Assembly: GCF_964204645.1 (NCBI RefSeq)
Contig: NC_134036.1
Span: 7,240,704-7,265,233 of the forward strand
Length of the DNA: 24,530 bases
Source: Tubulanus polymorphus
Lineage: Eukaryota; Animalia; Nemertea
Direction: 5' to 3'
The position numbers and the translations under genes were made by a program. Of the stretch, positions 1 to 22,260 are shown piece after piece. The notes beneath the pieces are model-generated. The model saw nothing but the letters and a program-made list of their open reading frames with translations. It did not search any database and had not been told where the DNA came from. Within the stretch, counting starts at the first letter, position 1, and the number at the start of each line of letters is the position of its first letter.

Positions 1-1146
1 GATTTCACTGAAATCAGTTCATTACGTACCACTATCTGTGAAGAAGCGCCACCTAGGGGTTATCCTGTATCATGGGTCAGCCCATATCATGGATATGTTG
101 ACCCATGGCTCTTAAGTGCAAAGTAATGATGTACCAAGTTTAGGGAAAATAACTTGGTGATACAGTGTTCTACCATTCCCTCGTAGCAAAGTACCTGTGT
201 ATCAATTTTCATAGAAATTCCTCCATCCGATAAGTAGATATCAATGAAAATGCATTTCCAACAATTTGTAGGTGGCGCTACTGGAGCACCATATGAGTTA
301 CCTACTTAAACCATACACCAATACAAGTGTCTTGTAAAGGGCTACTAACCACACATTTCAACCTCGATTCTATGACCAACGGTTTAGGAGCAAAGATCGT
401 TGTTTTCACAGTCCCCTGGTGGCAGTTGTATGAACTAATCATGCAGGTTGGCATATTACACACGTGTCTTTGTACTTATACTAAGTTTTGTAATAAACAG
501 ACCGCATTACATACGAAAAAATGGATGCCGAAATCGATTTTTCAAAATGTACGCCCCCTAGTGGTTAAAATAGGAACTAATCATGTGGGAGGTTCGTTGC
601 ATTTAGTAACCAGGTACATGTGTATCAATTCTTATAGAAATCCATTGATACCCTTAGTCGATATAGATGAAAATGTGTTTTCCAGCCTCTTATAGGTGGC
701 GCTACTGGAGAACCATATGAGTTACATAGTTATACCATACATCAATACAAGCGTCTTGTCAAGGGCTACTGATCACTCGCTGCAACCACAATTCTATCTC
801 CACCGGTTAAGGAGCTAGGAGCAAAAATCGCTTTGAAAAATTTGGTGTCCCATTTTCGAGCCCGTAGAGCCCAAACGGTTAATCGCAGATAGGGCGTGCC
901 ACTGACTTTTTTAGCCTCCAGGCTGTCATGAACAACTTTCGTGCCCGGCCGAAGCTGAAAACTCAAAGACAAAAATTTTCTCACACAGTAACTTTTCCAT
1001 GTCAGAATTTTCAAAAGTAAAACGCCCCCTGGTGGGTGAACGGGGTCCCCAATCAAAAAGCCATTAGACTTACCTCAAGGTACCTGTGTTCCGTACATCT
1101 AACGTAAGTTTCAAGTAAAACCGTTGAGCAATATTCTTGTTACTAG
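1..1146. repeat. Diverged internally repetitive non-coding element (about 423-bp direct repeat), probably a non-autonomous transposon, rich in CTCF-like motifs
   Basis: ~191-400 and ~613-830 are diverged direct copies (TGTGTATCAATT..ATAGAAAT; TAGGTGGCGCTACTGGAG.ACCATATGAGTTAC; CAATACAAG.GTCTTGT.AAGGGCTACT). ORFs 327..695 and 766..1056 show no recognisable protein features. Right boundary approximate. Confidence 0.55.
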
Positions 1147-1638
1147 CCGAATTCGAAGTATCAAAGCCTATGATGCTCACTACTAGTGTTGCCAGCTCTC
1201 TAACTTGTATACGGCACAAACACAAACAAGGCTATTAAAAATTCCACAGTTGCGTTCAGTCGAGCAATGTCCTAATTCAACGATCGATTCGTAGGAGTAA
1301 GAGATAAAAATATCACTACTGCTTACGTGTTTACTACAGATTCAGAACAATACAGCTCTATCGATATAAGGACACAGACACAAACACACGTATTTAGGAC
1401 GTGCTGTGGGAATGACACGTAGGCAATACACATACGTATATGGATACTGTTTGAATCGGGCTTAAATTTCGATGTTTAGAGGCTCACAGTGAGTAAACAG
1501 TGCAATTCTAATTAATATCATATACAGTATATGTCAATGCAGCGTAGTACTTGTGATACAGAATGGTTTCACCGACAGTGAAAGTAAATTGCAGTTGTTT
1601 ATATCCTTTCAGTACGATCCAGTGTGAAAAAGAATATG

Positions 1639-1881
<243 letters not shown>

Positions 1882-1884
1882 TAA

Positions 1885-2283
1885 TATAACTTATGACTAT
1901 AGTGTCAATATGTGCTTTAAGGTCGTAATCAACATGTGACATTACTCAACATGTTTTCACGATAATTAGCTATAGTCAGTGCTCATTGATAATTAATCAA
2001 TGTCTCTCAAACATGTAACTAGGTGTTTGTTTGTGAGTCCTGATGTCTACAACTTGTCTGACACCTAGTTCTCACATTATACTCATGATTCTGTATATAA
2101 AGACTATGTAAAGCTATGATAATCATTCTCATTCCGGGATGCAATAAAGATTGTACATATAAGGTTTAACTGCCTTGTTGTTCCTAATGGATGGAATCCT
2201 GTACCGCTGGTGTAAATGCTAGTTCCCCAGTCAGCCTGCCGATACAACAACCAGCCGGTTACAGATGGCGGAGAACCGGGTTT
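1885..2283 (+). mobile_element. Putative LTR (about 380 bp) plus primer-binding-site-like sequence
   Basis: Starts TATAAC (one change from TGTAAC) and ends GGTTACA at 2263. TATATAA near 2094, AATAAA at 2143. TGGCGGAGAACCGGG follows two bases after the end (PBS-like, loosely tRNA-Ala-type). No second LTR in the window. Confidence 0.4.
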
Positions 2284-2429
2284 ACCTCCACAGATCGAAG
2301 GTTACACCTTTATAACGTGGATTTATCAAAATTCCCATGCAGTATCTGGAGATTGAAGTGAGCTGAAGGACATCATACGGATTGTATCGGCGACAGCGGT
2401 AAGGTAAGGAAGCCTTTATACTTTTAACA

Positions 2430-2517
2430 AAAACTATGTGGAAAAGGGAAAAAAAAAAAATAATAATCACGCGAATTTCAATAGGGTTTTCTGTGAAGAA
2501 ACAGAAAACCCTAATAA
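2430..2517. mobile_element. Helentron/HINE-like terminus with perfect 13-bp hairpin, abutting the truncated Polinton polB
   Basis: TAGGGTTTTCTGT (2482-2494), loop GAAGAA, ACAGAAAACCCTA (2501-2513). Preceded by an A12/TAATAAT tract and followed by ATAA, a layout typical of non-autonomous Helentron ends. Confidence 0.45.
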
Positions 2518-2801
2518 CAAAAAGTGTAGTAGAAAAGAATATTCATTTCAAAGATTATATCAATTGTATATTCAATGAAGAAGTTAGAAAACATAGGATG
2601 AGATGTTTAAGATCTGAAGATCATGAAATGTTTATTGAAGAAATTGAAAAGATAAGTCTAAACCCATTTGATGATAAAAGATATATTTTAGATGATGTAA
2701 TTCATACAGTTGCTCATGGATGTAATTTAGATGAATACTTAAAATTTAAAAGAGAAGAAACAAAAGAGAACGAGATAATGAAAATAATTCTAACGTGTTA
2801 A
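2514..2801 (+). pseudogene. polB: C-terminal fragment of protein-primed DNA polymerase B (Polinton pPolB)
   Basis: ITKSVVEKNIHFKDYINCIF...MRCLRSEDHEMFIEEIEKISLNPFDDKRYILDDVIHTVAHG matches the Polinton pPolB C-terminal signature (KGvkk.vvk..i.f.dY..cl ... K.aLs.fDDKRyil.dgi.Tl.yG). The first 26 codons of ORF 2436..2801 come from the adjacent hairpin element. Confidence 0.9.
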
Positions 2802-2811
2802 TCAAATTTTA

Positions 2812-2833
2812 ATAAAAATGTGTTATTAAAATG
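2812..2833 (+). promoter_or_regulatory. A-rich class gene-start motif ATAAAAATGTGTTATTAAAATG
   Basis: A-run at about the offset where the downstream genes have a T-run; ends TAAAATG at the ATG. Confidence 0.4.
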
Positions 2834-3180
2834 GAGAGTAAACAAGCACACAGTGAGAACAACAAATTATTTCTAGACAGAATTAAAGATTTAACAAATG
2901 TAAAATCTGTAGATTATAAATTCAAAAAACAGAATTAACAATTCATAAGAAATATCTAATTACAAATATTGATACAGTTACTAATAACTATGGAGATAAA
3001 TTAGTTATACACTTAGAATATGAAGGATTAAAAGGAAATACATATAAATTCAGAACATATTTACCGGATAGATTTCATAGATTATCAAGTGAAGATTTAG
3101 AAGAATTATGTTCTGGAGATTTCTATTTCGTATACAAAGGTAAGAATGAAAAGGGGCACCATGAAATAGATTTCGAATAA
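2831..3180 (+). pseudogene. Small (~116 aa) Polinton accessory protein, possibly an OB-fold ssDNA-binding protein; frameshifted
   Basis: Absent from the ORF track. MESKQAHSENNKLFLDRIKDLTNVKSVDYKFKK, then a frameshift at A6 (2924-2929), then TELTIHKKYLITNIDTVTNNYGDKLVIHLE...FRTYLPDRF...FYFVYKGK...HEIDFE*. The beta-rich pattern (v.t.yG.k.v..l; ylP.Rf; fvY.G) resembles arthropod Polinton small proteins. The OB-fold call is inference. Confidence 0.6.
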
Positions 3181-3200
3181 GAAAATATGTAAAATAAATG
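3179..3200 (+). promoter_or_regulatory. A-rich class gene-start motif AAGAAAATATGTAAAATAAATG
   Basis: Ends in TAAATG at the penton-like ATG, with an upstream A-run instead of a T-run. Confidence 0.45.
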
Positions 3201-3954
3201 GTAGAATTAAAAGAATACAGAATATTTGTTGATTCTAGAAGACTTACAAATTATAAATCACATAATTTAATAGTTCAATTAGATAGAGAATTTAAGAATT
3301 GTGTTGATTTAAAATTAGTAAATATAAGTTTATGTAATTCTTTTTATAATGTATCGGATAAAAGTCTAGAACATTTAAATTTTTCAATCTTTTATAAAAA
3401 AGGAATAAATGGTTTTTTTATATTTAAAACCAGGATTATATAATTTAGATACATTAGCACAAGAAATTAATAGAAAAGCTCGAGCTAAATTAGGAAGTGA
3501 TTCCGGATTTAGTATTAGAATTTTAAAAAGTGATAGTTCTAATAAAATAAAGATTAGGTTAGCTAATGTCGAACAATTTAAATTTACAGTAAGAAAACCT
3601 TTAGGTAAACTGTTAGGAATTAACCCAGATATTGTTACAGCATACGCAGAAGGTAGATCAAACTTAATACCTTTTACACATTTTTATATTTATTGCAATT
3701 TAATTGACCCAACAAAAACATTTGAAGCAACTAAAGATACAATTTGTAATTCTAGTATATTAAATATTTTACCATTAAAAAATGTTAAACAATTTGGAAC
3801 GCAAATAAATTATAATTTAGCTGAATGTGATTTTAAACCTTGTATTCCACATTTCAATAATTTTAAATTAGAAATAAGAAATCACAATGGATATTTAATT
3901 GATTTGAATATCTTTCCTGTAATTTATGAATTAGTTATAAGATGTAGAGAGTAA
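3198..3954 (+). pseudogene. Minor capsid protein (penton, single jelly-roll)-like gene, split by one frameshift
   Basis: ORFs 3198..3443 and 3409..3954 join if one T is removed from T7 (3413-3419), giving ~251 aa. Motifs: IFVDSR, ISLCNSFYNV, LKPGLYNLDTL, LGKLLG, FYIYCNLID, ILNILP, FKLEIRNHNGYLIDLNIFPVIYELVIR, typical of Polinton/virophage minor capsid proteins. Confidence 0.75.
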
Positions 3955-3973
3955 TTTTTTCACTATATAAATG
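3952..3973 (+). promoter_or_regulatory. 22-nt gene-start motif TAATTTTTTCACTATATAAATG (poxvirus-late-promoter-like)
   Basis: Copy 1 of 6; the leading TAA is the upstream stop codon and the final ATG is the start codon. Confidence 0.75.
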
Positions 3974-4327
3974 AATATAACTGTTGGACCGAGTATATGT
4001 TTTGGGTTTGATTTTAAACGTGAGAAAGAAATGAAATTTAACATTAATGATGTAATTACACATATCAAAAATATTGCATTTTCTAATGAAACAACATTTG
4101 AGTATGAAACAACAATAGATAAAGAAACTTTAAATGTAGAAAAGATTACTAATTTAATTAGAGAATCTTTAAGATTTTATGAATTAGATGCAGATTTTAT
4201 CATCGATGATATTAAAAAAATAATAATTGAAATATATACAAATGAAACTAGTAATGAAATAAACGTTGAATTAATCATAAATAAGATAACTAAATATTTT
4301 GATGATAGTAATTTTTTTGATAAATAA
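3971..4327 (+). CDS. Hypothetical acidic 118-aa protein of the Polinton-like element
   Basis: Intact ORF exactly filling the space between two copies of the gene-start motif; no recognised domain. Confidence 0.7.
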   Translation: MNITVGPSICFGFDFKREKEMKFNINDVITHIKNIAFSNETTFEYETTIDKETLNVEKITNLIRESLRFYELDADFIIDDIKKIIIEIYTNETSNEINVELIINKITKYFDDSNFFDK

Positions 4328-4330
4328 ATG
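4309..4330 (+). promoter_or_regulatory. 22-nt gene-start motif TAATTTTTTTGATAAATAAATG
   Basis: Copy 2; embedded in the last codons of the upstream ORF (..NFFDK*), whose TAA directly precedes the next ATG. Confidence 0.8.
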
Positions 4331-4550
4331 AGTGATAATAAGTGGATAATAACTGGATTATATAATGGAGCATTACTATCAGTTGGAACTGTTGGTTATT
4401 CAATGGTATTAAAAAAAAGTATTTAAAATGGGAAGTGTTAATGTTGATAGATTTGATATAAATGATATTTTAAAATTAACGTTAGCAGTTACTTTATCTA
4501 ATTTAACTATTGATTATTTGGAAAAAGAAAAATATATTCCTCCCATATAA
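4328..4550 (+). pseudogene. Small (~73 aa) two-helix membrane-associated Polinton protein; frameshifted
   Basis: Absent from the ORF track. MSDNKWIITGLYNGALLSVGTVGYSMVLKK, one extra A in A8 (4411-4418), then VFKMGSVNVDRFDINDILKLTLAVTLSNLTIDYLEKEKYIPPI*. The pattern (Y.Ga.....vGy..l.Kk...; D..D..Kl; dYL...k.iP) recurs in invertebrate Polinton-like elements. Confidence 0.7.
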
Positions 4551-4555
4551 ATGCA

Positions 4556-4577
4556 TAATTTGTTTGCTAAATAAATG
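4556..4577 (+). promoter_or_regulatory. 22-nt gene-start motif TAATTTGTTTGCTAAATAAATG
   Basis: Copy 3; one T>G in the T-run. Confidence 0.8.
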
Positions 4578-4997
4578 GCTTCTGCAATTATAACTATTAT
4601 AGGATCAGCAATTGTTAACGCTTTAGCATTTACTGGTGGTGGTTATTTATTTAAACATATTGATAAAAATAGTTCATTAGGAGAACAAAGAAGACATAAC
4701 TTAGCATTAGAGAAATATAATAAAGCTGCAGAAGAATATAGAGAAAAGAGACAAAACTATATGGATTACATCAATAAAGAATTATATGATCAGAAGATTT
4801 CACATAGAGATTTTCAATCAGTTGATGATGCAATGAGTTTATATAACGCGGTAACCAATAAAGAAAAATTACATCTATACAAACCTAAATTATCAGATTA
4901 TTATACCCCAAGTAAAGAACAACAGAAATATGAAATAATTTGGATTTTAGGCGGAACTGTTATTGTTATATTTGTTGCTTATAAGTTTACTAATTAG
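4575..4997 (+). CDS. 140-aa Polinton-associated membrane protein (N-terminal Gly/Ala hydrophobic peptide, coiled coil, C-terminal TM anchor)
   Basis: Intact ORF. MASAIITIIGSAIVNALAFTGGGYLF...EQRRHNLALEKY...PKLSDYYTPSKEQQKYEIIWILGGTVIVIFVAYKF; the NALAF.G..YLF, E..RH.LA.E and P.LSD.Y.PS..Q..E motifs are characteristic of invertebrate Polinton-like elements. Confidence 0.85.
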   Translation: MASAIITIIGSAIVNALAFTGGGYLFKHIDKNSSLGEQRRHNLALEKYNKAAEEYREKRQNYMDYINKELYDQKISHRDFQSVDDAMSLYNAVTNKEKLHLYKPKLSDYYTPSKEQQKYEIIWILGGTVIVIFVAYKFTN

Positions 4998-5019
4998 TAA
5001 TTTTTTTGCTAAATAAATG
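4998..5019 (+). promoter_or_regulatory. 22-nt gene-start motif TAATTTTTTTGCTAAATAAATG
   Basis: Copy 4; constitutes the whole intergenic region. Confidence 0.8.
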
Positions 5020-5451
5020 GATGATAAAGTTGATAATATTGATATTATTCCTCATGATATAAATAAAACTTAATTAAAAACATATTTAGAAAAACAAATA
5101 TTAGAATTTGAAAGTGACTTAAAGATAAAAAAGAAAAAATATCTAAAATCTAAAATTATATATTATTTGATTATAAGTGGTTCGGTTACAATTAGTTCTG
5201 TAATAACATTTCTAGCAATTTTCAGTCCATTAACACCTTTAGCCATATCAATTGGTGTGTTAGGATTAAGTTCAAGTGTTTTAACTGGTATAAGTTCAAA
5301 ATTAAATATAAAAAGTAATAAAGAAAAAATTAAAACTAATATAAAAGAAATTAATAAATTAAAGAACACACTAGATTATATAATAAGTTTAAATGTTCAT
5401 ATAACAGTTGAAGAACAAGATAAATTATTAAAAGAATTAATAAATTATTAA
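5017..5451 (+). pseudogene. Two-TM coiled-coil protein (~144 aa) with a premature stop
   Basis: True start is ATG 5017, in frame with ORF 5167..5451; in-frame TAA at 5071-5073. Lys-rich helix, two hydrophobic helices (IIYYLIISGSVTISSVITFLAIF; LAISIGVLGLSSSVLTGI), then a coiled coil. Confidence 0.75.
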
Positions 5452-5470
5452 TTTTTTTATTAAATAAATG
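5449..5470 (+). promoter_or_regulatory. 22-nt gene-start motif TAATTTTTTTATTAAATAAATG
   Basis: Copy 5; the leading TAA is the upstream stop codon. Confidence 0.8.
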
Positions 5471-6756
5471 GTAGATAGTTTTCCAAAAGCTTTCCAATAT
5501 AATAAATCAATTAAATATAATATTCCAGCAATAGATTTTAATAAAGATATTACATATAGAAATGAAGTTTTAGATTCATTAACTAATTTAGAAATTTATG
5601 TTACTGAAACTAATAATTTTAATGCAAAGATGATAAATATATTTCATGTATATTTAATTAATTTTAAAAAATTGAAAGATGAAAAACAATGGTTATTAAA
5701 ATCTAATATGAAGTATTGGCAGAACCAATTAAATTTTGCTGTTTATTGTGCAACAACAGGTTGTGGAATTAGTTGGAATGATCATTTGAATAATTCTAAA
5801 TATAAATTAATGCAAAGTTTATTTAGATTTCATACATACTTTCAAATCAGAATAATATTAAATGAATTAGAGTGTGCTTTACCAGGATCTAGATATTTTA
5901 AAGAATTAGATAATAATATTAATTTATCTAAGTTTTATAAAATTTGCAATGAATTTAATATAGATATAAATAATTCTGATTTTAGAACAAAAATTGGAAC
6001 AATAAGATCACTTCCTTGCCCTAAAAAGATTGCAGAATATTGTGCACTTCCCATACCATCTAATAGTTTTTATAATATCTATAGTAATAAATTAGGTTAT
6101 GGTAAAATAGAAACTAAGGATTTAGAAACATTGAATCAGGTATACAAAGAATAAATCAATCTATTAGAACTTATTTGATATGTATTTTAGGTGCGCAAGT
6201 TGAAACAAGATCACCGTTAATTGGAAATTTGAATACATCATTCGATACACAAAAACAATTTAAATTTTATTTGAAGATTCCATACATAATGATAAAAATA
6301 GATCGATTCCAGAAAACATTGTAAGATATCAAAATTATTTAGATAAATCACATATTAGATTAAATTATTGTATAGGCCCTAATCTATTAATTATTTCTAA
6401 TGACTTAGTATTAAAGATGGGAAATATAATTGGTTATAATAATCTAATTAAAACTGCAACAATAAATAATTCATTTGGATTGAATGATATAAATAAAAAG
6501 ATTATCACTGCTCCAAAATTAATGGAAGGTGAAAAAAATAAAAAACATATTCAATCAACTGAAACTAAAACTAAAAATATTAAATTAAATAATGATTCTA
6601 AACCGGATTATAATACATCAAGAAAATGTTAAAACTGATAATATTCAACTTGATATAATTAAAACTAATGATGATAATATATCCCATGAAAATGCTAAAT
6701 TAGCTTTAACTTGTATAGGAATTGTAATCGGAGGAATATCATATTTTAAATTTTAA
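5468..6756 (+). pseudogene. Conserved Polinton-associated protein (WQNQLNFAVYCATTGCGIS family) with C-terminal TM anchor; several frameshifts
   Basis: ORF 5468..6154 continues in shifted frames as RINQSIRTYLICILGAQVETRSPLIG, then IVRYQNYLDKSHIRLNYCIGPNLLIISNDLVLKMGNIIGYNNLIKTA (ORF 6417..6632), and ends HENAKLALTCIGIVIGGISYFKF* at 6756. Confidence 0.8.
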
Positions 6757-6775
6757 TTTTTTTATTATGTAAATG
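6754..6775 (+). promoter_or_regulatory. 22-nt gene-start motif TAATTTTTTTATTATGTAAATG
   Basis: Copy 6; the leading TAA is the upstream stop codon. Confidence 0.75.
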
Positions 6776-7685
6776 GCAGAAGTCGGAGAAGATTTTCCAT
6801 TGTAAAACGGGGGAAATAATGATGAAGGATATATTGATGATGATTATAATGATGCAGGTGCTAATCTTAATGAAACTAATATTGATAATGATGATGAATC
6901 GGCATATAATTCTAATTTAGCAGATAGTGGTTCTAAAGTCCCATCAACAGATGAATTTGATAGAAGAACTAGATCGAGAATACCTACTGAAAATGAAAAT
7001 CCAGATTTAGTAAAACAAAATTTAGAAAATATTGAATTTATGTATGATTTTCAACGTGTATTTAAAGAATCTGGATATAATATAAATGATAGAGGCGCCA
7101 GATATTTAGTAAGAGAATTAAAATCATTAGATGGTGAATATTATTATCATTTGAAAGATGATTATTATATTGATATCTCTTATAAAAAACAAAACAAAAT
7201 ATTAGCAGAATCAACTTTGTTTAGGTTAGACCTATCTAGAATTAAAAGAATAAGAAATCGTTATGAAATAGAAGATGTAACACAAGAAGAAATTATTAAA
7301 AATGAAAGAGTATTTAAACAAAGAATTAATGAATTATTTGAAACAATCAAAGATAATCCAGAAACAGAAACAACTTCTGAACAGAATAAAACTTCCAAAA
7401 CTAGTAAACTTAAATCAAATAAAGTTCCAATTGAAAAACTTTTACCGAATGGATTACTTGATGCAACAGATCAAGAATTAGAAGATTTAGATATATTTTC
7501 TGATAAAGCAATAAGAGAAATTTTTAGTATAAGACTTGCATCTGATAAAATTGCGCATGATAAAAGTATAAGAGTTTTAAAATTAGAACTTTAGAAAAAG
7601 AATTAACTGATAAAAATAAAGAAATAGAACAATTAAAGTCTGATTTAGATCATCAAGTAATTGATGAAATATATCAATTTTATCT
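6773..7685 (+). pseudogene. Large acidic/coiled-coil Polinton protein, N-terminal part only
   Basis: ATG 6773 is in frame with ORF 7040..7594; in-frame TAA at 6803-6805. D/N-rich N-terminus, then a coiled coil continuing in another frame past 7594 (ELTDKNKEIEQLKSDLDHQ). AT-rich composition ends near 7685. Confidence 0.7.
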
Positions 7686-8029
7686 AAGAGGTCCAGAGAC
7701 ACCACGCCAATGGTTTGAAATGCCCAACAGAAAATTCCGATATTCAACACACCTTGGTGAACATTTGAAATCATATAGAAAGCGATGACCTTAGAACTCA
7801 CCACAATCATAGAACATGTCAATAGCTACAATTTTGTTAAAGCATACTTTTCCGAAATGTTTACGTTTCTCTCATATGCATTTCATCCCTGCTAAGTATA
7901 GGGCTATGGTATTCGGCCAGTTTAAAGCTGGAATCAATTTTCAACAGGGTAATCGACAGTGAATTGGGAAAAAGGAAATACGAGGTCTTTACACCCAGCG
8001 TGCAAGAATTGTGGACGACACGAGCAAAA

Positions 8030-8640
8030 TGGACGACTAATCATTCTCGATGCGTTTAGTGAAATGGGAAGCGTTTACTATTTCCACAGCGAAATCTTCG
8101 GTTTATGGCGACATTTGGTCTATAGCGGCATTGGGGCCACCCGACGGTTGGCGAAAAGGCGAGATTTAGAAAGATATAGCAACTAGCAAATGAGCCAAAA
8201 GAGTACCATCCTTGGATCACAAAGTTGATGCTTTCTATATTTCAAAAGAAGTTTGTTGTTGCTTACATTTCAAAAAATCAGGATCGGCCACAATGTCACT
8301 GGGTAGGAAGAGTACACGAGGAGGAAGAAAATAATACAAGATCTTTGAACCCGGGACCCTGATAGTAGGTGCATCTATTCAAGGATCTAGCATCGAACAA
8401 TGGTCACACATTGAACTTGACAAAACTTTTGAGTAGGACTTCTCATTGAATTGCAACCGAGCGATTGTTAGACGAATCGCTGTTCCGCTACAGAGATGAA
8501 TGGTATACGGTAAATATTATCTTGGTTTTGATTATGAAAAAGTTACCAGTGCAAAGCTTATCACCCTAGAGTTCCTTTCTTGTCTGGATTTAAAGTACGT
8601 AAAGTGCTAGAAAAAATCAGTACAGGTAGATTACCTCGAG
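8030..8640 (+). pseudogene. Highly decayed Ty3/Gypsy-type integrase remnant
   Basis: LIILDAFS, frameshift, KWEAFTIST, then TFGL resembles the rve core (l.ivDafSKw.ea.p ... rfGlP); KVLEKIS near 8600 resembles the GPY/F region. Many stops and deletions. Confidence 0.35.
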
Positions 8641-9394
8641 AATGGTGCCCTAGCCGTGGGGGCCGTCGGCGCATCACAGTTCGCACAGTTTGTTGCTTAT
8701 GCTATGTTATGATTTAAGCACACGTGCCTAGCCGAAATTAGTTAGAACTGATTTAAAGATCGAAGAATTTTGGGGTTGTTAGAACTCCGGTTACGAAATT
8801 AGATAAATAGAATTAGATAAAAATTACTCCACGTGCTAAACCTATTGTACACAAAACACTGCTGACCCCCCACGATGACGTCACTTCTAATAGAGATGAT
8901 CGTCAAATTAAGGTGGAGTTGCTATAGTTAACAGTGCACCGTATACGAAGTATGAATGCTGAATGGATATTTGGTATTTTTCTGGTAAACTCGATCAAAT
9001 TCGTTAGGTTTTGTTTACTGAATGTTTTTCATCAAGCACTATAGTAAGTTGAAACGTGAATTCGAAAAAAAAATTAATTCGTATTTGTGTATGTGTGTGA
9101 TGTGAGAGGATAATAAGCAATAAAAAAGAAGAAAACCATCGATTTGTTGAAGATGAATTTTGAGTCCGCGTAGTAATTTATGTAGCTGTAGGTATGTATG
9201 TAATTTACAGAATATCACAATGCACTGTATACATTGAATACCGGTTCTATGTGTTAAAATGTGAATAAATCCTTGAAATCAATAGTTATTTTTGACTGAA
9301 TTTCTAAAGCGGATTTTCAGACAGAAATACTTACGAATTTCTCGGCCCCGTAAAATTATATTATGTAAACATTTACTACATATTTACATGCATG

Positions 9395-11558
9395 TGTGGC
9401 GAAAATTGTCAATATCTGGGGTGGGTTTGACCACAAAATGTCGGTCTTTGGTGAAATTATATTATGTATTTCGGAATGGCCTTTAGCTGTTCTTTTCTCA
9501 TTGTTTCTTTTTAGATGTACGTATTCCGGGACGGGGCTGGGTGTTCTGCGGCGATGTTTCGGGATCTTTTCGGCTCAATTTCAATCTGACAGATTTTTGG
9601 CAGTCCTGTCAGATTCCAATTTCACGACCTGGGCAGGCCCCCGCGGTGTTGGCCACGCCACATCGCGGTGACATAAGCGATTTTTCGGCGCCTGTCCAGG
9701 CCATTCTTTTATCCTCCACCTACCTATTAGTGTGTGTTCTCCTTTTTATATTCGAGACCCAACTTCTTTGATTTTGGGCCGTTTTGGTTCCGTCTCGTCG
9801 CCGGAGAATTCTCCAGCCCTGCTCGTGTTTACGCTCGTTTTTACGACGCCGTTCGCTGGCGCCGCCTCACTTCCGTGTGAGCGTTTTCGCGGTGGTGCGG
9901 TTAACTCCGGTTTATTTTTAGTAAATATCTCCGTATCGGTCTTATAGTCGTCATTTTTCGCGTTAATCTTAAAATATTATAGAACTTAATTCTATTTCTC
10001 GCGTATGAAGTCTTTATTTAGGGTTTTATCATTCGTCACGGTCGAATGATTTCGCGTGCTCTACTTTGTCCGCGGATCGTATCACTGCTCGTCACGCTTG
10101 ACCAATCACCGCGTGCGTTGACCGCATTAAAACTATAAATTTGGCGCAATCGCGCTCATTGGCAACTTGGCTCTGGCAGAGCCACATTAGAAACTCTTCT
10201 TGCTGCCTCTTCGCCGTTTTACGAATCGGACGCTGTAAATCGTACAGATCATGTAAGAAGACAATTTTACTCTCTAATTAAGACACGGGCCTCCGGGTCG
10301 TCTGACCCCGGGATCGCTTCAGTGGTTTTTGACATCCCGCCCTCAGTGAGTCCCGAGTGCCGACGCACCCGGGGGTCGTGTAGTCGTCGGCCATGGGCTG
10401 CCGATAAACTCGTCACTTACAATCCTGTAAATATTGTAAATTCTCCGTCAGTTCATCGTCTGTTTAAATTCAATCCTCTGACGATGCCAACTTAACGCTC
10501 TCGTCGCTGTAATTAGTAATAGTAATAATAATAGTATGGTATATCTTCTGTGCTATTTCCGTAATTTTACTCCGAGATGTCGTTTCTGCTGACCATGAAA
10601 ATCACCTGTATTCAGTAATTCCTTTTTTGAACGAACGCGCGGTCGTTTCATCTTCTTGACGTCGCCTCTGAATTTCGACTCTTTGAGTTCGCGTCACCGA
10701 CATTTTGAATTTGGCGCGCAGTCGTTGATTAACGACAACGCTCGTCGTTAACTATTTGACGTTCCGTCGTGTAATTCTTATCGTTGATTGAAGACAACGC
10801 TCGTCGTTAACTATTTGACGCTCCGTCGTATAATTCTTATCGTTGATTGAAGACAACGCTCGTCGTTAACTATTTGACGCTCCGTCGTATAATTCTTATC
10901 GTTGATTGAAGACAACGCTCGTCGTTAACTATTTGACGCTCCGTCGTATAATTCCTATCGTTGATTAACGACCACGCTCGTCGTTAACTATTTGACGCTC
11001 CGTCGTATAATTCTTATCGTTGATTGAAGACAACGCTCGTCGTTGACTATTTGACGCTCCGTCGTATAATTCTTATCGTTGATTAACGACAACGCTCGTC
11101 GTTAACTACTTGACGCTTCGTCGTTAACATCTTAATCGTTGATTAGCTTCGACGCTCGTTTACTGAGACCTAAGTTATATTAGATACACACCGGAGTCCG
11201 CCGCGCCACCGCTTCTATTTGACGTTCGGTCGTCTCCTTTGTATGCTACCGTACATTGACTGTACCAAGGCTTTGCAAGCCACGAAGGGCACATTCTTTT
11301 TATATATCGAAATGTAAATAATCAAGGTGTTTTGCGTGTGGACATGATGTCCCCTTGGCATCAAGAACGATGAACTTTGTATTATAAGAAAATATATATA
11401 TTTAATAATTCGTACTACATTCCAATCAAACTTCGAATCTTGCGTTTATTTGATTCGCCGGCACTGGAAGGAAGGACGAGGATTTCTGTTTGTTTTCCTG
11501 CTGCATCGAACCCATTTAGTTCTACGTGAGGATCGTTCCCCTATTGACCGTCGCTACG
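9395..11558 (+). mobile_element. Long (~2.2 kb) LTR-like segment (possible solo LTR)
   Basis: Begins TGTGGCGA and ends TCGCTACG (imperfect terminal inverted repeat). Non-coding and CpG-rich, with CCAAT (10102), TATAAAT (10134) and an internal tandem array. No target-site duplication found, so boundaries are tentative. Confidence 0.45.
10722..11160. repeat. 59-bp tandem repeat, 7 copies plus a partial copy
   Basis: Unit TCGTTGATTGAAGACAACGCTCGTCGTTAACTATTTGACGCTCCGTCGTATAATTCTTA starting at 10722, 10781, 10840, 10899, 10958, 11017, 11076, with a partial copy at 11136. Confidence 0.97.
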
Positions 11559-12306: not shown

Positions 12307-15300
12307 TTACGTATTGACTTTTAACGTACCCGAGTTTATGCCTATATCGAACTTTATTCTTCCATACGGATCAATCGATGACACTTGCTCCGTTCTTTTC
12401 TCAAGTAAATGCTCCGCATCACAATTGATTCGAACGTTCCAGAAGTGAATAATGAGTCGCAGCACGAAAACGTGTTTTGCAGCACCCATCACGTCGAGAA
12501 AAAAATTTTCTTTTTTATCACAGAATTAATCTGTTCTTGCGATTCGCTATTTAGCCAACCACGTAACTGGCGCACATGGTTCATCCGTCTCAAAATATCT
12601 TTCTCGACGCTGGTGTTAGTTTCGTGAAAACGATTGAAATTACGTAGGTATCCGTTGTACGAGTGATTGGATGGCCACCTGTATTATTTACATAATCATG
12701 GTTGACAACTGTTCATATTTCAAGTGTCTTAAATAGGGTATATCAATGTCTAGTTTCTTTGTTTTTGGCCGCTGTGATATTTTCCTCGGTTGGTTCTAAC
12801 AGACGGCCTTCGTTAGGATGAAACATATTCGAAGTGCGTTGATTGCCGTGTTTTGTTACTATCCCAGCCAAGTCACTTATTACAACAGTCGGCTGGTGCT
12901 TCATGGAAAGTATCATGTGTACGTGATCTCTCGCCCCTTCTCCACCAAGTAACACCTTAATACCGTAGGCCACTCGATGTGGACATGTTACAGCAAGCCA
13001 ACCACCTGACAATAAAAATAAAGTCATATTATTCGAACGAACTTTATATTTAAGTTCGGAGAAACAACGAACATTGTTCCTTACCTGATGCTCCTCATAG
13101 TTTAACTAACTTTTCATAGTACTATTGTTACCATAGACCTTGCTTTAAAGCATTTTAAGCATACCCGTTTTCGATCCGGTCTTTTTTATTCCGATGCTTC
13201 TGCATGCTTTCTGAATGTCTTGTACTGTAATAATAGCGCTTATTCCATCTTGCCATTGTAGGTAAGAATTATTTAGTCATAATCTAGGTCTGTTAACTCC
13301 TTTCCACAGTGTCGTACATCAAATGTAATATCTGTTCGGTGGTTATCGTCAATTCATTGTCTTCATCATTGTTGTCGTCTTGGGACATGCAAACAGTTGT
13401 ATTTTTTGTACTCTGTATTTACAGCGGTATCACCGCTTCTACTTTTACGATCCATGGCGCCCAGTTACTAAAGTTTGGGGCTACTATCTTGTTTGCCATG
13501 CAACCTTAAATATGTACAAACGATTGCTGTAGCCACTATTTGAGATAAATGTGGCTACCTTCTAATGTTGAAAATGCTACCTTTGCTTGATTGATTGATT
13601 ATATCAGTTTCCACTTGCGATTAAAACGAATCAATATTTGCATCATCCGTGCAGTCGTCTGTTGGCTCTAATTCTGCAGCTGCAATAGAAAATAACGCGG
13701 ATGAATGACGTCCGTTGGTAGAAACAAACATATTTGTCTGATCTGCTAAAACTTGATTTATGCCTTACCATTGAGCCTGTTGGTTGAGTTTTATGTTCGA
13801 TGTTTCCTCTATGATTGACACCAAACGACCTACTGCTGTATGATTCTGAAATTATAAGACATAAAATTTCATGAACAATAGAATTAACAAAGTCATATTT
13901 GAACTTTACAGTGAGGTTGATACTTACCATCAAACCAGCTCGTAACCACAGACATAAACGAGTCGACAACAACAAACTGCCGTCGAAGATATGAATTCCC
14001 TCATCGTGCTCCTGATATCAAAACCAATGACCTCATTGTCGACATTGCCGAACGTATACTTCAATATCTTAAAAAAACAGTGTCATTGAACATTATATGA
14101 TTAGATAAGACAACATTTTAAATGCATGATTTTCGACTCAATTAAATAAATCCATTAAATAATCCAATCAAAATAACTTATGTGAATGGCAATAATATCG
14201 ACAATTTCCCCGCGAAACGTAAATCTGTGTTCGTGCAGTTCACATCCACATTTATGGCAACGATTTTTGCGAAGTCTAATCTGCGTGATTTGGCTTGGGG
14301 ATTGTACATGTCCCGGGATAACCGGGATTCGCTTGTAATTGCGTAAATAATGTGACAATTCGTCCAAAAGTTGACCCTGTGGCGGGTATGAATTGTCGAT
14401 GGAATGGTCAGCGTCTTGGTGTCCAGATTATTGGATTTCACGTCGGTGAATGCCAGATTTGATTGCAATGAAAACCACTTTGCAATAGACTTGTGGATAC
14501 AGCCTTTCCTGATGAGCATTTACAATTTAATTGTTATGCTTTCCGATCGAACGAAATGACACATCTACCATGCCGACTCCATGATCGTATTTCTCCGCAA
14601 AATATTGACATATGGATAAAGCGTTCACTTCTCATCCATACACTGATCAATGGAGCCTTTTTTGCAATGCCAACTGTGAACGCACTGGACAAGCATTTTT
14701 GCTATCTATTCCAATAATTTATCTATGTGCAAGTGACTCTAAACTGTCGTTTTTTAACTGTGTATTTACATATGGAAGGGCGTGAGTAGCACTTTTGACG
14801 TGTGGACTCTGGTATGCATTATTGCCACCTCGTGCAGACGCTTCTGATGCCGAGATGCACGTGTCGTTTTCGCAACTGAACATTGCAGGCGGCGATGCCC
14901 TTGCAATCACATGGATGGGGTATCCCGCTCCGTGCATAGAATTCGCGATCAAAAATATTCCCCGATTGGGGTCGACACCCGGGGTGGTGTCTGTTGGAAT
15001 CAATAATTGCAGGTGAATGCTGTGCCATATGCTTCTTTATATTTTTTCTATACCTAATGGTAGCATTGCAATGTGTAAATTTCACATTGTCCCATTTAGG
15101 GTTCGGCATTTCATTGACGGATACGACTGTTTCTAAGCGCGGATTCGGTACTTCGTTGGATACGACTGCTGCAGAGCGTGGGTTCGGCATTTCATTGACG
15201 GATACGACTGTTTCTAAGCGCGGATTCGGTACTTCGTTGGATACGACTGCTGCAGAGCGCGGATTCGGTACTTCGTAGACGGATACGACTTCTGCAGAGC

Positions 15301-15690
15301 GCGGATTCGGTACTTCGTTGACGGATACGACTGCTGAAGAGCGCGGATTCGGTACTTCGTTGACGGATACGACTGCAGCAGAGCGCGGATTTGGTACTTC
15401 GTTGACGGATACGACTGTTTTATTACATACGGCTAGATGTGTTTCGATATTTTCTCTCCGCGATATGATGGCCAAACACTCGGAGCAATGAAAATGGTCA
15501 TGTCCACTTTGGTTTCGGCAACAAACATGATGGCATGCGAGTATAAGTATATCTAGCAAAAGCAAAAAAAACAGAAAAAGAATAAAAAGCAATAATAATA
15601 CATCGCTTTCATCGTTGGTAGCCTTATATTCAAGAAATGCATAGTTCAGTTTACCTCTGTACAAAAACGCTGATTTTCTATGGCATAAGC
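12307..15690 (-). pseudogene. Spliced KDZ/Zisupton-related (HMGXB3-like) transposase pseudogene with zinc fingers, a SWIM-like and a CxC-type region
   Basis: Ordered minus-strand motifs: HFHCSEC; VDPNRGIF..YPIHV; CKC..GCIHKSIAKW; YQEHDEGIHIFDGSLLLSTRLCLWLR; NWAPWI..NTEYKK; GASG/GWLAVTCPHRVAYGIKVLLGGEGARDHVHMILSMKHQPTVVISD; RFHETN; LNSESQEQ; MGAAKHVF. Frame-restoring GT-AG introns at 15553-15654 and 13006-13084. Many stops and frameshifts; N-terminus missing. Confidence 0.85.
15098..15418 (-). repeat. Coding minisatellite, 8 units of 42/39 bp (VVSVNEVPNPRSAA) between two zinc fingers
   Basis: Visible in ORF 14819..15748. Units differ by whole codons; the last four form two copies of an 81-bp higher-order repeat. 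Confidence 0.95.
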
Positions 15691-15693
15691 TCC

Positions 15694-16603
15694 ACGCCAT
15701 CAGATTACTTGCCTTGTCCACACTGCAGAGGATATTACAAAAGAGCAAGTTTGTGGCGACACTGTGGAAAATGTCCGGCGAAACCAGTTAGCCATTCCAA
15801 AAAGAGAGTTCGAGTGCAGACGGAAGCTGCATCAATGTTACCTGGTTGTCAAGATGAGGCTTAGCTGAATTACTTGATACATTGCAGCATGATGATGTAT
15901 CAATGGTTGCTAAAACAGATGTCCTGAAAAAAGATGTCGCAAAAAGGTCATTGTCCAAACACAATAGAAAAAAAAACAAGTTTTCTTCATTAAAAAAGCA
16001 TATGAGGTTACTTGGTAGGCTTGTGCTTAAACTGCGAGAGATTTCAGATATTGTCCTGTACTGATGTTATACGGCCATGTAGCTTTGATGACATTGTAAG
16101 AGCAGTAAAGGAAATGGCAGGATTTTGATCCACAACATGGTGTCTACAAGGTGCCATCTTTAGCTTAAGCAGTTGGTCATGCTCTTGGGAGAGGCACTAG
16201 TTATCAAGTTCATAAAAACTCATGAAGATGAATATGAATATGAATGTGAAAAACACCTGTGCAAAGAACTAACACATATCAGCGTTATCGGTAAGTGGGG
16301 TAGCCATGTGCCAGTTATTTTGACACAAACTGTGACGAAGTATAATGATATTTTGATTGATCTGCGGTCCGTGGTGAGAGTCTCCGACAGAAATCCATAC
16401 ATATTTGCACGCCCATATGGTGCATCATTGAATGAAATTCGTGGTGCTGATTGTTTGCGATTGTATGCACATGAATGCGGGGCTAAGAAGCCAGAGTTAT
16501 TGACATCCACAAGATTGCGAAAACACATGGGTACTATGTCGCAGATTTTAAATTTGAAAAACCATGAATTGGATCTCCTGGCTCGGTATATGGGTCACGA
16601 TAT
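15694..16603 (+). pseudogene. Crypton-like tyrosine recombinase pseudogene (animal YR family), internally deleted and truncated
   Basis: DYLPCPHCRGYYKRASLWRHCGKC; HMRLLGRLVL; FDDIVRAVKEMAGF; YKVPSLA; VIGKWGSHVPVILT; NPYIFARP; IRGADCLR; LTSTRLRKHMGTMSQILNLKNHELDLLARYMGHDI. The expected continuation with the catalytic Tyr is replaced by the hAT end at 16604. Confidence 0.85.
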
Positions 16604-17005
16604 CAGGCGCGGATACAGGGGGTGGGTTCCTTGGGTTCGAACCCACCCCTTTTTGGACAAGTGCCCTTTTTAAAAACGCGCTGCTGAAAAATCCGGTGCT
16701 CGCACGTCGGCTATTTGCCGCCTCGCGTTGTCCGGTGTCTATGTCCGGGGCCGCGTTCCGGTACGCAACATGGCAACTCTCGCTAGCTGAAGTTATAAGA
16801 AATTTTTTTATTAACTTTCTCTGAATATGCCGCCAAAAGAAAGATATGGAAAACGAAAAAAGCAGGAAAATGTTGCGGCGGCGTCGAAAACTGCAAAAAT
16901 TACAGATTTGTTCAGGTAAAGATAGTGATCAGATGGAAATTTTGACGTTAAAACACGACAGAATTCGTTCGTCGAACGAAGGCCATATTACTACTAGTAG
17001 GCCTA

Positions 17006-17502
17006 CTGTCCGTCACACCTACTCTCCGTGCGACGTTTTGGTCCGTAATTTCATTAGTAAACCGTTTATCTACCTTTATTACACATCAATTTGTTAAGTG
17101 GGGACTTAGAAATTTAGAAATAAACACCAATTTTTACTAAAGGTGTTTTTGTTGTCATTTATGAGCGATAGTTTACTCAGCATACGCTCGTGTAATGCTG
17201 AAAAACTCCGCGGACGCTCGGAAACGTTACAGTGACGTCATTACCTGCTCGTTAGCATATCAAAATACAGTAGGTGGCGCCACGTAATGGGCCATAAATG
17301 CAGATTTTCAGCATCACGCGAGCGTATGCCAGGTAAACTATCGCTGACAGATAAAAATACAAACAAATCTATGACACTTCATCATTTATTTCTGAATGCA
17401 AATTCCTTACTGAACAAATTGATGCATAATTTTTAGAGATGAACCGATTATTCACGTAATTACGGACCAAAACGTCGCACGGAGAGCAGGTGTGACAGAC
17501 AG
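17006..17502. mobile_element. Foldback MITE with TA target-site duplication (Tc1/mariner-type)
   Basis: TA|CTGTCCGTCACACCTACTCTCCGTGCGACGTTTTGGTCCGTAATT ... AATTACGGACCAAAACGTCGCACGGAGAGCAGGTGTGACAGACAG|TA: 45-bp TIR with 2 mismatches; imperfect symmetry continues about 200 bp inward. Confidence 0.9.
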
Positions 17503-17710
17503 TAGTCTGTAAGAACTTCGTCCACCCATCATAACTGATGTATTTGGCGGCACTAGAATGGATTATGATTCCGATGAGAATTTATCAGGGGCACATTATT
17601 TTCATAACAAGGTCATTCTCATTTCGAACGGGTGAATGTTCTTTATTTTGATGAGGGCACCTAATTTTTCCTGCGGATCCAAATTTCAGAAAAGGGCCCT
17701 GCACCATATG

Positions 17711-20992: not shown

Positions 20993-21724
20993 CTCGTTTG
21001 ATGGCGCTAGTCAGAACCGGAAATTGGAACCTAAATTCGCCATGCTCTAGTTCATTTACAATGAAAATCTCTCGCCTACCGCTACGTAAGATAATATAAA
21101 ACCTCACTGCAAAGGCTAGAAATCACTATAAATGTCCTAAAATTAAAAAAAAAAAACATTTTTCCACGGCTAACGATGCAATGACTGGTTGCCAGGTATC
21201 ACATGGTGGCAGCACTTGACGGCCCAATTTTAATTGTTGGTTCGAGTCCTGGTACTTTTCATATTTTTATTATGAATCTACGAGTGTAGTCCTTCTAAAA
21301 TCAATTTTATTTCATAATATATTTTCATATTAAAATCAGTGTAGATTATATTTCATATAATAATCAGTGTAGCCTGCAATTAATTCACCTCAGAGTCTTG
21401 AACTCAACAACTAAATGATGACACCCGGCACCAGTCATTACTTGCATTAGCTGCTTCCAGCGTTATCGCTAAATTTGTGATTGTTGGTAGTTCTTTGACA
21501 TTTCAAGTGATCTTTAGCGTTCGAAGTGAGGTTTTATCGAATTCATCACATTGTCGGGATATCATATTTAAAGGATTTAAATGCGTGCCGATGTATGATA
21601 AGTAAAATATCGCTAACTAAAACGTTGAAGCGATAGATTTTTATTGCAAATGAACTAGTACATAAGGTATTTCGGTTATATTTTGAATTCATTTCCAGGT
21701 TAAATTCAGCACCATTCTCGCGAG
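20993..21724. repeat. Long imperfect inverted repeat (arms ~20993-21255 and ~21385-21724)
   Basis: ATAAAACCTCACTGCAAAGGCTAGAAATCAC (21096-21126) matches the reverse complement of 21507-21537; CTAGTTCATTTACAATGAAAATCTCTCGC (~21047) matches the reverse complement of ~21630-21658. Confidence 0.75.
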
Positions 21725-21806: not shown

Positions 21807-22260
21807 ATGTCTGACTATTGTGTTGTGGTTGGTCACAATAGCAAAGGGGGACATAAGTTCCCTACCAAGAAAAACCTGTATAAGGAATGGTGTGTAGCAA
21901 TAAAAAGAGCCGATAATACTGACAAAAGAAAATTATGGTCGCCTGGTCAACGTAGCTTTGTTTGTCACAAGCACTTTAAACCAGCTGATCACAGAAAAAC
22001 GGGACTTTTAGGTTAGTTTAAATTTGCATGAGAAATCAATATGCTGACAATCTACCACGAAGCTCTTTTATACGTGTTGCTCAAATTTCAATTTCAGAGG
22101 AAAGGAAAATCTTGAAACCAGACGCTGTTCCCTCAGTCGTTGCGTTCAAAGAAAAACTAAACCAGCACAAAAAAAGATCAACAGATAATAGGGGAAAACG
22201 TGCTGCAAAGCAAATGAAGGTTATGAAAGATAATCGTTATACTAGACATTTTTTTAATTC
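21807..22260 (+). pseudogene. THAP-domain protein, two exons (21807-22011, 22098 on); probably transposon-derived, truncated or degenerate
   Basis: MSDYCVVVGHNSKGGHKFP...EWCVAIKR...WSP..RSFVCHKHFKPAD...LL|EERKILKPDAVPSV. The GT-AG intron 22012-22097 joins ORFs 21774..22016 and 22028..22339 in frame. Second THAP Cys is replaced by His; ETS site CCGGAAGT at ~21750. 3' end uncertain. Confidence 0.8.

Follow-up and report, generated by a model that had tools for sequence, protein, structure and literature searches.

Within the window (the whole stretch of 24,530 nucleotides that was analysed) lies a decayed 5.3-kb piece of a Polinton family that is present in many copies. The copy in the window is itself a dead fragment. 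Most of its genes are broken, and the capsid, rve integrase and A32 ATPase genes are all absent from it. Its features, all on the forward strand, are listed below.

2403..2801, +, C-terminal remnant of a protein-primed DNA polymerase B (PolB; found with tblastn)
2831..3180, +, broken gene, homolog of a 114-aa ORF in relative L004
3195..3200, +, TAAATG initiator with A-rich upstream sequence and no T-run (seventh site)
3198..3954, +, frameshifted gene for a candidate minor capsid (penton) protein, homolog of 254-264-aa ORFs in L001 and L004
3952..3973, +, motif 1: upstream stop, T-run, TAAATG; ATG at 3971
3971..4327, +, 118-aa ORF, kept in L001, L003 and L004
4309..4330, +, motif 2, lying over the 3' end of the 118-aa ORF; ATG at 4328
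4328..4550, +, gene of a 75-aa family, frameshifted near 4415
4556..4577, +, motif 3, T-run interrupted in the window copy; ATG at 4575
4575..4997, +, intact 140-aa conserved Polinton ORF, no assigned function
4998..5019, +, motif 4; ATG at 5017
5017..5451, +, hydrophobic gene of about 144 aa with one early stop
5449..5470, +, motif 5; ATG at 5468
5468..6756, +, conserved Polinton gene of about 440 aa, in several pieces
6754..6775, +, motif 6; ATG at 6773
6773..7700, +, broken homolog of the L004 485-aa gene, truncated at its 3' end

The PolB remnant was matched at 2541-2720 by PolB queries from L054 and L059 (tblastn, E 2e-8 and 2e-9). For the gene at 3198..3954, a candidate penton function is suggested by a DUF5901 match (E 0.003, under the curated cut-off). 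The 140-aa ORF has 472 representatives at E ≤ 0.001, and the product of about 144 aa gave a weak SLATT-like match (E 0.002, also under the cut-off). The protein of about 440 aa was used as the family marker; it had no relatives among the viral contigs and no usable Atlas match. In L004, the 485-aa gene sits just before the capsid gene.

A Polinton-type element had been proposed for this locus, and this was borne out by the PolB remnant in the window together with Polinton genes in its relatives. A full protein-primed PolB gene (PF03175) is present in L054, rve integrases in L004, L009 and L006, and an A32-type packaging ATPase in L004 (PF04665, E 5e-11). A 415-aa protein of L004 was modelled as a double jelly-roll major capsid that matches the PBCV-1, SGIV and mavirus capsids (best E 5e-15; pLDDT 75 from a 13-sequence alignment, only 34 when folded from the single sequence). 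The L004 gene set also includes a nucleoside kinase (dNK) on the opposite strand. No RNA polymerase was seen in the gene set of the family. No adenovirus-type cysteine protease was found among the 15 L004 proteins (contigs incomplete, with part of L054 scanned), and no terminal inverted repeats (TIRs) or target-site duplications were found in the window, L004, L006, L046 or L054, all of which are fragments. Read depth (run X5) was mostly 160-575 per mate direction over 2408-6725, compared with 10-46 at 8250-9265, and was at flank level past about 8 kb. Of 55,032 aligned reads in that run, 1,560 were at ≥ 99% identity to the window copy. The element is thus dispersed, multicopy and integrated in the host genome.

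The first-pass annotation had reported that six successive genes start inside one motif, and 22-mers of this kind were found at 3952, 4309, 4556, 4998, 5449 and 6754. Five copies fit TAA-T6-N7-TAAATG exactly and the copy at 4556 has one mismatch; no further site with ≤ 2 mismatches occurs on either strand of the window. When 2401-7700 was shuffled 500 times with dinucleotides preserved, exact matches averaged 0.0 and one-mismatch matches 0.032, and no shuffle reached the observed counts, so that six copies stand against about 0.03 expected by chance. The ATGs at 3971, 4328, 4575, 5017, 5468 and 6773 are the starts of six consecutive genes; tblastn alignments to intact relatives begin at residue 1 or 2 for the first five of these genes and only at residue 26 for the sixth. 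The motif makes up the whole intergenic gap at 3952, 4998, 5449 and 6754 and most of it at 4556, while the copy at 4309 is overprinted on coding sequence, both as had been described. Motif 3 carries an uninterrupted T-run in more than 90% of host reads from other copies. Two further gene starts depart from this pattern: the one at 2831..3180 is missing the exact hexamer in the window copy, with the motif present in its L004 homolog, and the one at ATG 3198 has TAAATG with no T-run, an A-rich form that recurs in the L004 homolog.

An exact length of 22 nt proved too strong a description, because the leading TAA varies among relatives (-18 is A in 91% and -19 is T in 74%); in 3/6 window copies it is the stop codon of the upstream gene. 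The core of the motif is shorter, namely a T-run centred near -13 plus TAAATG.

In order to follow TAAATG across the family, gene starts were counted per clade on tree-defined clades. TAAATG was found at 17/20 starts in clade A (the clade of the window) and at 47/51 in clade B, compared with 0/9 in the sister pair L005/L006, 0/2 in L008/L025 and 0/104 in clade Y. In L004, TAAATG stands at all 14 gene starts from 125 to 10981, including those of the integrase, ATPase, capsid and dNK. On the tree, the motif label requires 3 changes (13.9 when shuffled), and TAAATG is all-or-none per element. Its presence in clades A and B shows conservation in relatives, which removes one of the objections that the first-pass annotation had named against itself. 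Upstream of most of 10 starts inspected in the sister element L006, a different recurring word was found (a T-run with a TATA-like word), and words of this kind therefore turn over between lineages.

With element GC at 19-25%, the hexamer might have been a by-product of extreme AT richness. This explanation, to which we give next to no weight, was ruled out by the shuffles, by a GC-matched contrast of relatives (47/51 in clade B versus 0/27 in the nine clade-Y loci at 34-43% GC) and by the coding sequence, in which TAAATG is not enriched.

A translation or 3'-end signal was also considered, either as stop-start coupling on a polycistronic RNA or as the poly(A) signal of the upstream gene. TAAATG joins a stop to a start, AATAAA lies inside 4/6 window copies and the window genes are co-oriented. 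Against this, the upstream stop falls inside only 5/71 hexamers, hexamers also stand at the head of divergent genes and of genes on the opposite strand (the clade-B pair of ATPase and 440-aa genes, and the L004 dNK), and AATAAATG, found in 4/6 window copies, occurs at just 10/23 clade-A and 12/51 clade-B starts. We regard such a signal as improbable.

The motif had been read as a poxvirus late promoter. The vaccinia late consensus is T-N9-TAAATG (PMC11980589, PMC11423596, as far as available), with TAAATG over the ATG, T at -13 in a T-rich block and a spacer of 5-7 nt (available parts of PMC5294985 and PMC4542343), and an entomopoxvirus TAAATG appears in the available part of PMC3061580. The geometry of the element motif matches the vaccinia consensus, since T stands at -13 in 5/6 copies of the window and, in clade A, at 22/23 starts (0.5 after shuffling); this T is weaker in clade B (31/49), where the peak is at -14. 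Among pox gene families, 0.73 fit T-N9-TAAATG (0.40 after shuffling); among iridovirus-like families the fraction is 0.34 (0.37 after shuffling). A pox profile outscored an iridovirus profile at 5/6 window, 17/23 clade-A and 34/51 clade-B starts, the pox sample being drawn from a single region of vertebrate poxviruses and comprising 11 gene families (38 vertebrate-poxvirus-like records retrieved, entomopoxviruses absent) and the iridovirus-like profile being blurred by mixed temporal classes. With positions -5/-4 left out, clade B favours pox in only 21/51 starts. A T-run of ≥ 5 over -13 is more frequent in the elements (5/6; 57%) than in pox (8%) or iridovirus (21%), so that the motif is stricter than the viral pattern from which it would have been copied. 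It also differs from the vaccinia late promoter in its longer T-run, in its near-fixed A at -4 and in standing at essentially all genes rather than at one temporal class.

A poxvirus as the helper was not established by this likeness, since iridovirus-like genomes share TAAATG, and TAAATG alone is therefore no proof of a poxvirus link. In 13 iridovirus-like loci, TAAATG occurs at 56/132 distinct starts (42%), compared with 1-5% of non-start ATGs; a T-run is present at some of these starts, and the pattern of the window is matched exactly in three records. No description of such starts in iridovirus-like genomes was found in the literature searched. Iridovirus-like loci also came out on top of an unbiased motif scan, in which no poxvirus was recognised. 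The helper need not be a poxvirus, and an invertebrate iridovirus or another non-pox nucleocytovirus is a possible, if tentative, alternative. A at -4 was found in 5/6 window copies, 23/23 clade-A starts and 97% of iridovirus-like families, compared with 36% of pox families, and the A at -4/-5 of the window (AATAAATG) is likewise nearer to iridovirus (0.88) than to pox (0.25). Iridoviruses have both nuclear and cytoplasmic phases (available part of PMC5294985), so that an integrated element would be easier for them to reach. Other positions point away from an iridovirus: T at -5 (57% of clade A, 0-2% of iridovirus-like starts) and T at -4 (55% of clade B, 3% of iridovirus-like families) are near-absent there, and the iridovirus-like T peak lies at -15/-14 with no enrichment at -13. 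The clade-A peak is at -13, and the T-run of the window spans -15/-14.

When 50 element proteins were searched against 178 viral loci (partial genomes), no genes shared with pox or iridovirus loci were found. The sole match was dNK to L201, a locus without the motif; dNK, with four unnamed homologs and one viral locus that lacks the motif, did not point to a helper. Avoidance of the poxvirus early terminator TTTTTNT in these elements had no specific support, because motif-free controls are depleted too (11 versus 18.8 ± 3.8) and the window (5 versus 4.8) and clade B (22 versus 24.7) are not, leaving clade A at 6 versus 11.9 ± 2.0. AATAAA was depleted in no group.

The motif could instead be an autonomous, lineage-specific promoter that host RNA polymerase II reads in the nucleus, possibly together with a factor encoded by the element; the likeness to pox would then be convergence. 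The integrated, multicopy state of the element and the word turnover seen in L006 are consistent with this, and coral polintoviruses are transcribed, with no helper reported in the available part of the source, which counts against helper dependence. However, the motif adjoins the ATG and leaves no space for the 25-30 nt between TATA and start (PMC5294985, as far as available), at -3 it has T, whereas a purine is favoured there by motif-free relatives (79/104 clade-Y starts), and no transcription-factor family was found in the 15 L004 proteins, though most of these had no Pfam match. We consider this explanation unlikely, at roughly one chance in five.

Our preferred reading is that the motif is probably a post-replicative promoter and initiator, used by the polymerase of a large DNA virus that co-infects the host. 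Within this reading a helper of pox type is the likeliest, at somewhat short of an even chance, with an iridovirus or another nucleocytovirus less likely. Initiation would fall within the AAA of TAAATG, with nearly no templated 5' UTR, and a poly(A) leader made by slippage, as in poxviruses, would take the place of the Kozak-poor T at -3. Every gene would be a separate transcription unit; integrase, ATPase, capsid and nucleoside kinase would be switched on together in the late phase of the helper, and the integrated element would be silent without it, as for mavirus. It counts against this reading that an integrated copy, being in the nucleus, would first have to reach a polymerase in the cytoplasm. 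No evidence was found for the antiviral defence that the first-pass annotation had raised as a possibility.

Promoter borrowing in protist virophages and poxvirus-associated Polinton-like viruses (PLVs) are already known. Mavirus carries the promoter motif of its helper CroV (available parts of 10.1101/068312 and PMC8547959), and mavirus and the EMALEs, as described there, are likewise integrated mobile DNA viruses of pPolB/rve type with promoters like the late motif of a large helper. EMALE types carry different motifs, much like the turnover among the Polinton relatives here. They differ in their protist host, their Mimiviridae helper and a dependence shown by experiment; the window family has a probably animal host, a motif of pox/iridovirus type and a putative dependence on a helper. 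The PLV Gezel-14T carries the promoter motif of its helper PgV upstream of its genes (10.1101/2022.07.28.501842, as far as available), in this case an early mimiviral motif at 5 genes in an algal host. PLVs present in entomopoxvirus occlusion bodies (Barth et al. 2024, PMC11296320, as far as available) are also small Polinton-related viruses and proposed poxvirus hyperparasites, one of them integrated in a beetle genome. They have a protease and no rve integrase, and their poxvirus link is co-purification and shared genes, whereas the window family has an rve-chromo integrase and its evidence is the promoter. A search of the text and supplement of PMC11296320 did not turn up the word 'promoter'. 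With the Maverick/Polinton group (adintoviruses, polintoviruses) the family shares pPolB, rve integrase, A32 ATPase, a double jelly-roll capsid and multicopy integration; no protease or TIR was found in the incomplete contigs examined, and the shared gene-start motif divides the Polinton family into motif-bearing and motif-free clades.

No promoter analysis of integrated Polintons of this kind was found in the literature. It has long been asked whether the Polintons of animals live as autonomous viruses, as transposons or as parasites of larger viruses. A borrowed promoter, if true, would mean that the virophage lifestyle also occurs among integrated elements of a host that is probably an animal. 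The all-or-none 22-nt motif offers a sequence-level classifier, and predicts which large DNA virus to seek in a host. More speculatively, and with well under an even chance, entire lineages of integrase-bearing Polintons in animal genomes may be virophages that have become endogenous and depend on pox-type viruses, some of them still undiscovered and in hosts for which no poxvirus is known. The word would then act as a fossil barcode of the helper, rewritten at every gene when a lineage switches helper. The words themselves differ by lineage: two clades have TAAATG, L006 has an asfarvirus-like T-run with TATA, and clade Y has none.

The six 22-mers in which the first-pass annotation had six successive genes begin (window positions 3952, 4309, 4556, 4998, 5449 and 6754) were recovered, five matching TAA-T6-N7-TAAATG exactly and one with a single mismatch; a search of both strands found no further site in the window, even with two mismatches allowed. 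When the 5.3-kb AT-rich block was shuffled 500 times with its dinucleotides preserved, an average of 0.0 exact and 0.032 one-mismatch sites turned up, and no shuffle was as high as observed. Aligned with intact relatives, five of the six motif ATGs are true starts (residue 1 or 2), and the same relatives show the six motif-headed genes to be consecutive. The claim of a fixed 22-nt motif held for the T-run and the TAAATG hexamer; the leading TAA is the stop of the upstream gene in three window copies and is looser in relatives, so the core was taken as a T-run centred near −13 (counted upstream of the ATG) plus TAAATG. In genomic reads from the same species, the T-run of the imperfect motif was uninterrupted in 485 of 519 and 495 of 535 reads. 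In a seventh gene (ATG at 3198) the hexamer is preceded by A-rich sequence; four contigs carry a variant in which a T-run precedes this gene.

The surrounding block (2.4–7.7 kb) has a GC content of 19–32%, versus 33–47% elsewhere in the window, and gave no convincing Pfam match. Relatives were collected by using a 440-aa marker gene (46 of 64 parts covered), and among the best 80 of 85 confirmed metagenome loci, gene order was kept in the four closest at 69–73% identity. The longest of these, L004, continues into a capsid gene (double jelly-roll in a predicted model; 13-sequence alignment, pLDDT 75), an rve-chromo integrase, an A32 ATPase and a deoxynucleoside kinase. pPolB is present in more remote relatives, and its C-terminus matches window positions 2541–2720. 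Given this gene set and this match, the window copy is an internal piece of an element of the Polinton family, in agreement with the first-pass label. It lacks capsid, integrase, ATPase and TIRs, and most of its genes are broken; the antiviral defence that had been suggested is impossible for this copy. This copy's depth in genomic reads from the species is about 10 times that of the right flank, and the reads are mostly 85–99% alike, so many diverged copies of the element are present in the host. The THAP domain found in the flank would fit an animal host. The L004 kinase (10340–10981, opposite strand) is a motif-headed cargo gene with few close homologs found. At window positions 5017–5451, a hydrophobic protein has a weak SLATT-like match (E 0.002, below cut-off); SLATT-domain genes have been reported in polisuviruses.

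In two clades of this integrating DNA virus family, almost every gene was found to have the motif fused to its start codon. TAAATG forms all 14 L004 gene starts between 125 and 10981, including those of the integrase and of the opposite-strand kinase. A quick IQ-TREE marker tree was built from the window piece and 55 of the 80 loci (ORF ≥ 220 aa), its four closest rows being flagged for odd composition; motif-bearing elements form two groups, clade A (which holds the window piece) and clade B, inside one 27-row clade, with 3 label changes for the motif versus 13.9 in shuffles. Counted over near-full-length ORFs of 11 conserved families, TAAATG heads 17 of 20 starts in clade A and 47 of 51 in clade B, so that the conservation on which the first-pass annotation had staked its reading is present; the counts are 0/9 in the sister pair L005/L006, 0/2 in L008/L025 and 0/104 in motif-free clade Y (0/27 in the clade-Y loci whose GC content matches that of clade B). 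Among the 22 loci with at least three starts, 11 have TAAATG at two thirds or more and 11 at none. This all-or-none pattern is the main point; the Fisher value of 5e-17 overstates the case, as it counts as independent the starts of one element and those of closely related elements.

Stop-start coupling was ruled out, since the upstream stop lies inside only 5 of 71 hexamers and the hexamer also heads divergent genes. A translational or 3'-end role for the motif seems very improbable. The base at −3 is a purine at 79 of 104 starts in motif-free relatives and T in the motif clades. At the ATPase/440-aa gene junction (L007, L009–L013, L017, L018, L020 and L021), the hexamer of the 440-aa gene lies inside the overlapping opposite-strand ATPase coding sequence and is preserved by synonymous codon choice. 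In L006, the nearest motif-free sister, a different word recurs at most of the starts of 10 conserved genes (judged by eye), a T-run and then TATA-like bases a few nucleotides before the ATG; it is reminiscent of the late architecture of ASFV and asfarvirus late promoters, and suggests a switch of promoter or helper.

No RNA polymerase was seen in the element's family, and the polymerase of a helper nucleocytovirus probably transcribes the element. The motif would be promoter and initiator for the helper's post-replicative polymerase, transcription would start inside the AAA of TAAATG, a slippage leader of the kind described for poxviruses (PMC4542343) would take the place of the T at −3, and all element genes would fire in the helper's late phase. 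A parallel is mavirus: its promoters are similar to the late motif of CroV, and its integrated copies stay silent until infection (10.1101/068312). Host Pol II might instead read the motif, which we consider unlikely. Coral polintoviruses are expressed, and the available passages of PMC11131425 mention no helper, so not all Polintons need one, and the motif-free clade could be of this helper-independent kind.

For the favored helper polymerase, the first-pass annotation had proposed a poxvirus-type source. Vaccinia late promoters have TAAATG and a conserved T ten bases upstream (PMC11980589; PMC11423596 Table 1), and TAAATG is also used by entomopoxvirus late genes (PMC3061580). An unbiased viral-contig scan with the window's pattern (56 of 64 parts) gave 120 stretches, 80 with flanks. 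The records richest in TAAATG starts were iridovirus-like, a label drawn from WIV, DUF5772, MSV199 and DUF3627 domains and from record sizes typical of invertebrate iridoviruses. TAAATG stands at 56 of 132 distinct starts in 13 iridovirus-like loci and, with the selecting match removed, at 13/101 in giant-virus bins and 25/320 in other viruses. The 38 poxvirus records (labelled by Rap94 and VP8) have it at 354 of 780 starts, all from the region around one gene.

In family-weighted profiles, poxviruses show a T peak at −13 (73%) with −5/−4 free, and iridovirus-like records show A at −5/−4 (89% and 97%) and T at −15/−14. T at −13 occurs in 5/6 window copies, 22/23 starts in clade A and 31/49 in clade B, and in 0.73 of 11 pox and 0.34 of 30 iridovirus-like families. 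The pox profile outscores the iridovirus-like one at 5/6, 17/23 and 34/51 starts, respectively, in a comparison where the pox side is limited to one region of vertebrate viruses, entomopoxviruses being absent, and the iridovirus side combines genes of different temporal classes. Against a pox source, clade A resembles iridoviruses in having an almost invariant A at −4, the long T-run is commoner in the elements than in either virus group, and clade B becomes a toss-up (21/51) without −5/−4. No gene linking the element to either group was found in the viral stretches compared. A pox-type helper is put forward tentatively, an iridovirus or other helper being only somewhat less likely; the first meeting of a nuclear integrated copy with a cytoplasmic polymerase would be easier for an iridovirus, because it has a nuclear phase (PMC5294985). 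In the iridovirus-like records L107, L117, L128 and L202–L213 the hexamer almost always takes the form AATAAATG, and a T-rich block lies at −15/−14. Two viral records of 340–380 kb, L333 and L334, encode an RNA polymerase that is divergent (27% to the pox query) and have TAAATG at only 2/19 and 2/20 starts.

Promoter borrowing is already known from protist virophages and one algal PLV, and poxvirus-associated PLVs are also known (PMC11296320). The supplement of the latter has no match to 'promoter' and two to TAAATG, both in repeat tables, and the main text of recent preprints on PLV diversity and egoviruses has no match to 'promoter'. A full-text literature search, with most subscription papers outside its reach, returned no report of the TAAATG motif in Polintons or of TAAATG as an iridovirus start motif. 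What appears new is the probable helper-promoter mimicry in integrase-bearing Polintons, with the helper leaning pox; the motif observation stands and its interpretation is partly supported. With a conserved, cheaply testable motif, transcription of animal Polintons becomes a directly testable question.

Other features of the window are as follows.
1636–1884: long (AAT)n microsatellite, to the left of the element by some 500 nt
7785–7837: short host repeat present in a very large number of copies, just past the element's right end
10663–11193: tandem array, 59-nt period, about nine units
15099–15425: 39–42-nt tandem repeats within a 293-aa ORF, minus strand
16179–16673: 164-aa ORF, presumably like a tyrosine-recombinase C-terminus, no Pfam match
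17003–17505: MITE-like nested inverted repeats, arms 105 and 64 nt, 80%
21021–21684: other inverted repeats
21807–22016: THAP domain remnant in the element's flank (PF05485, E 2e-9)
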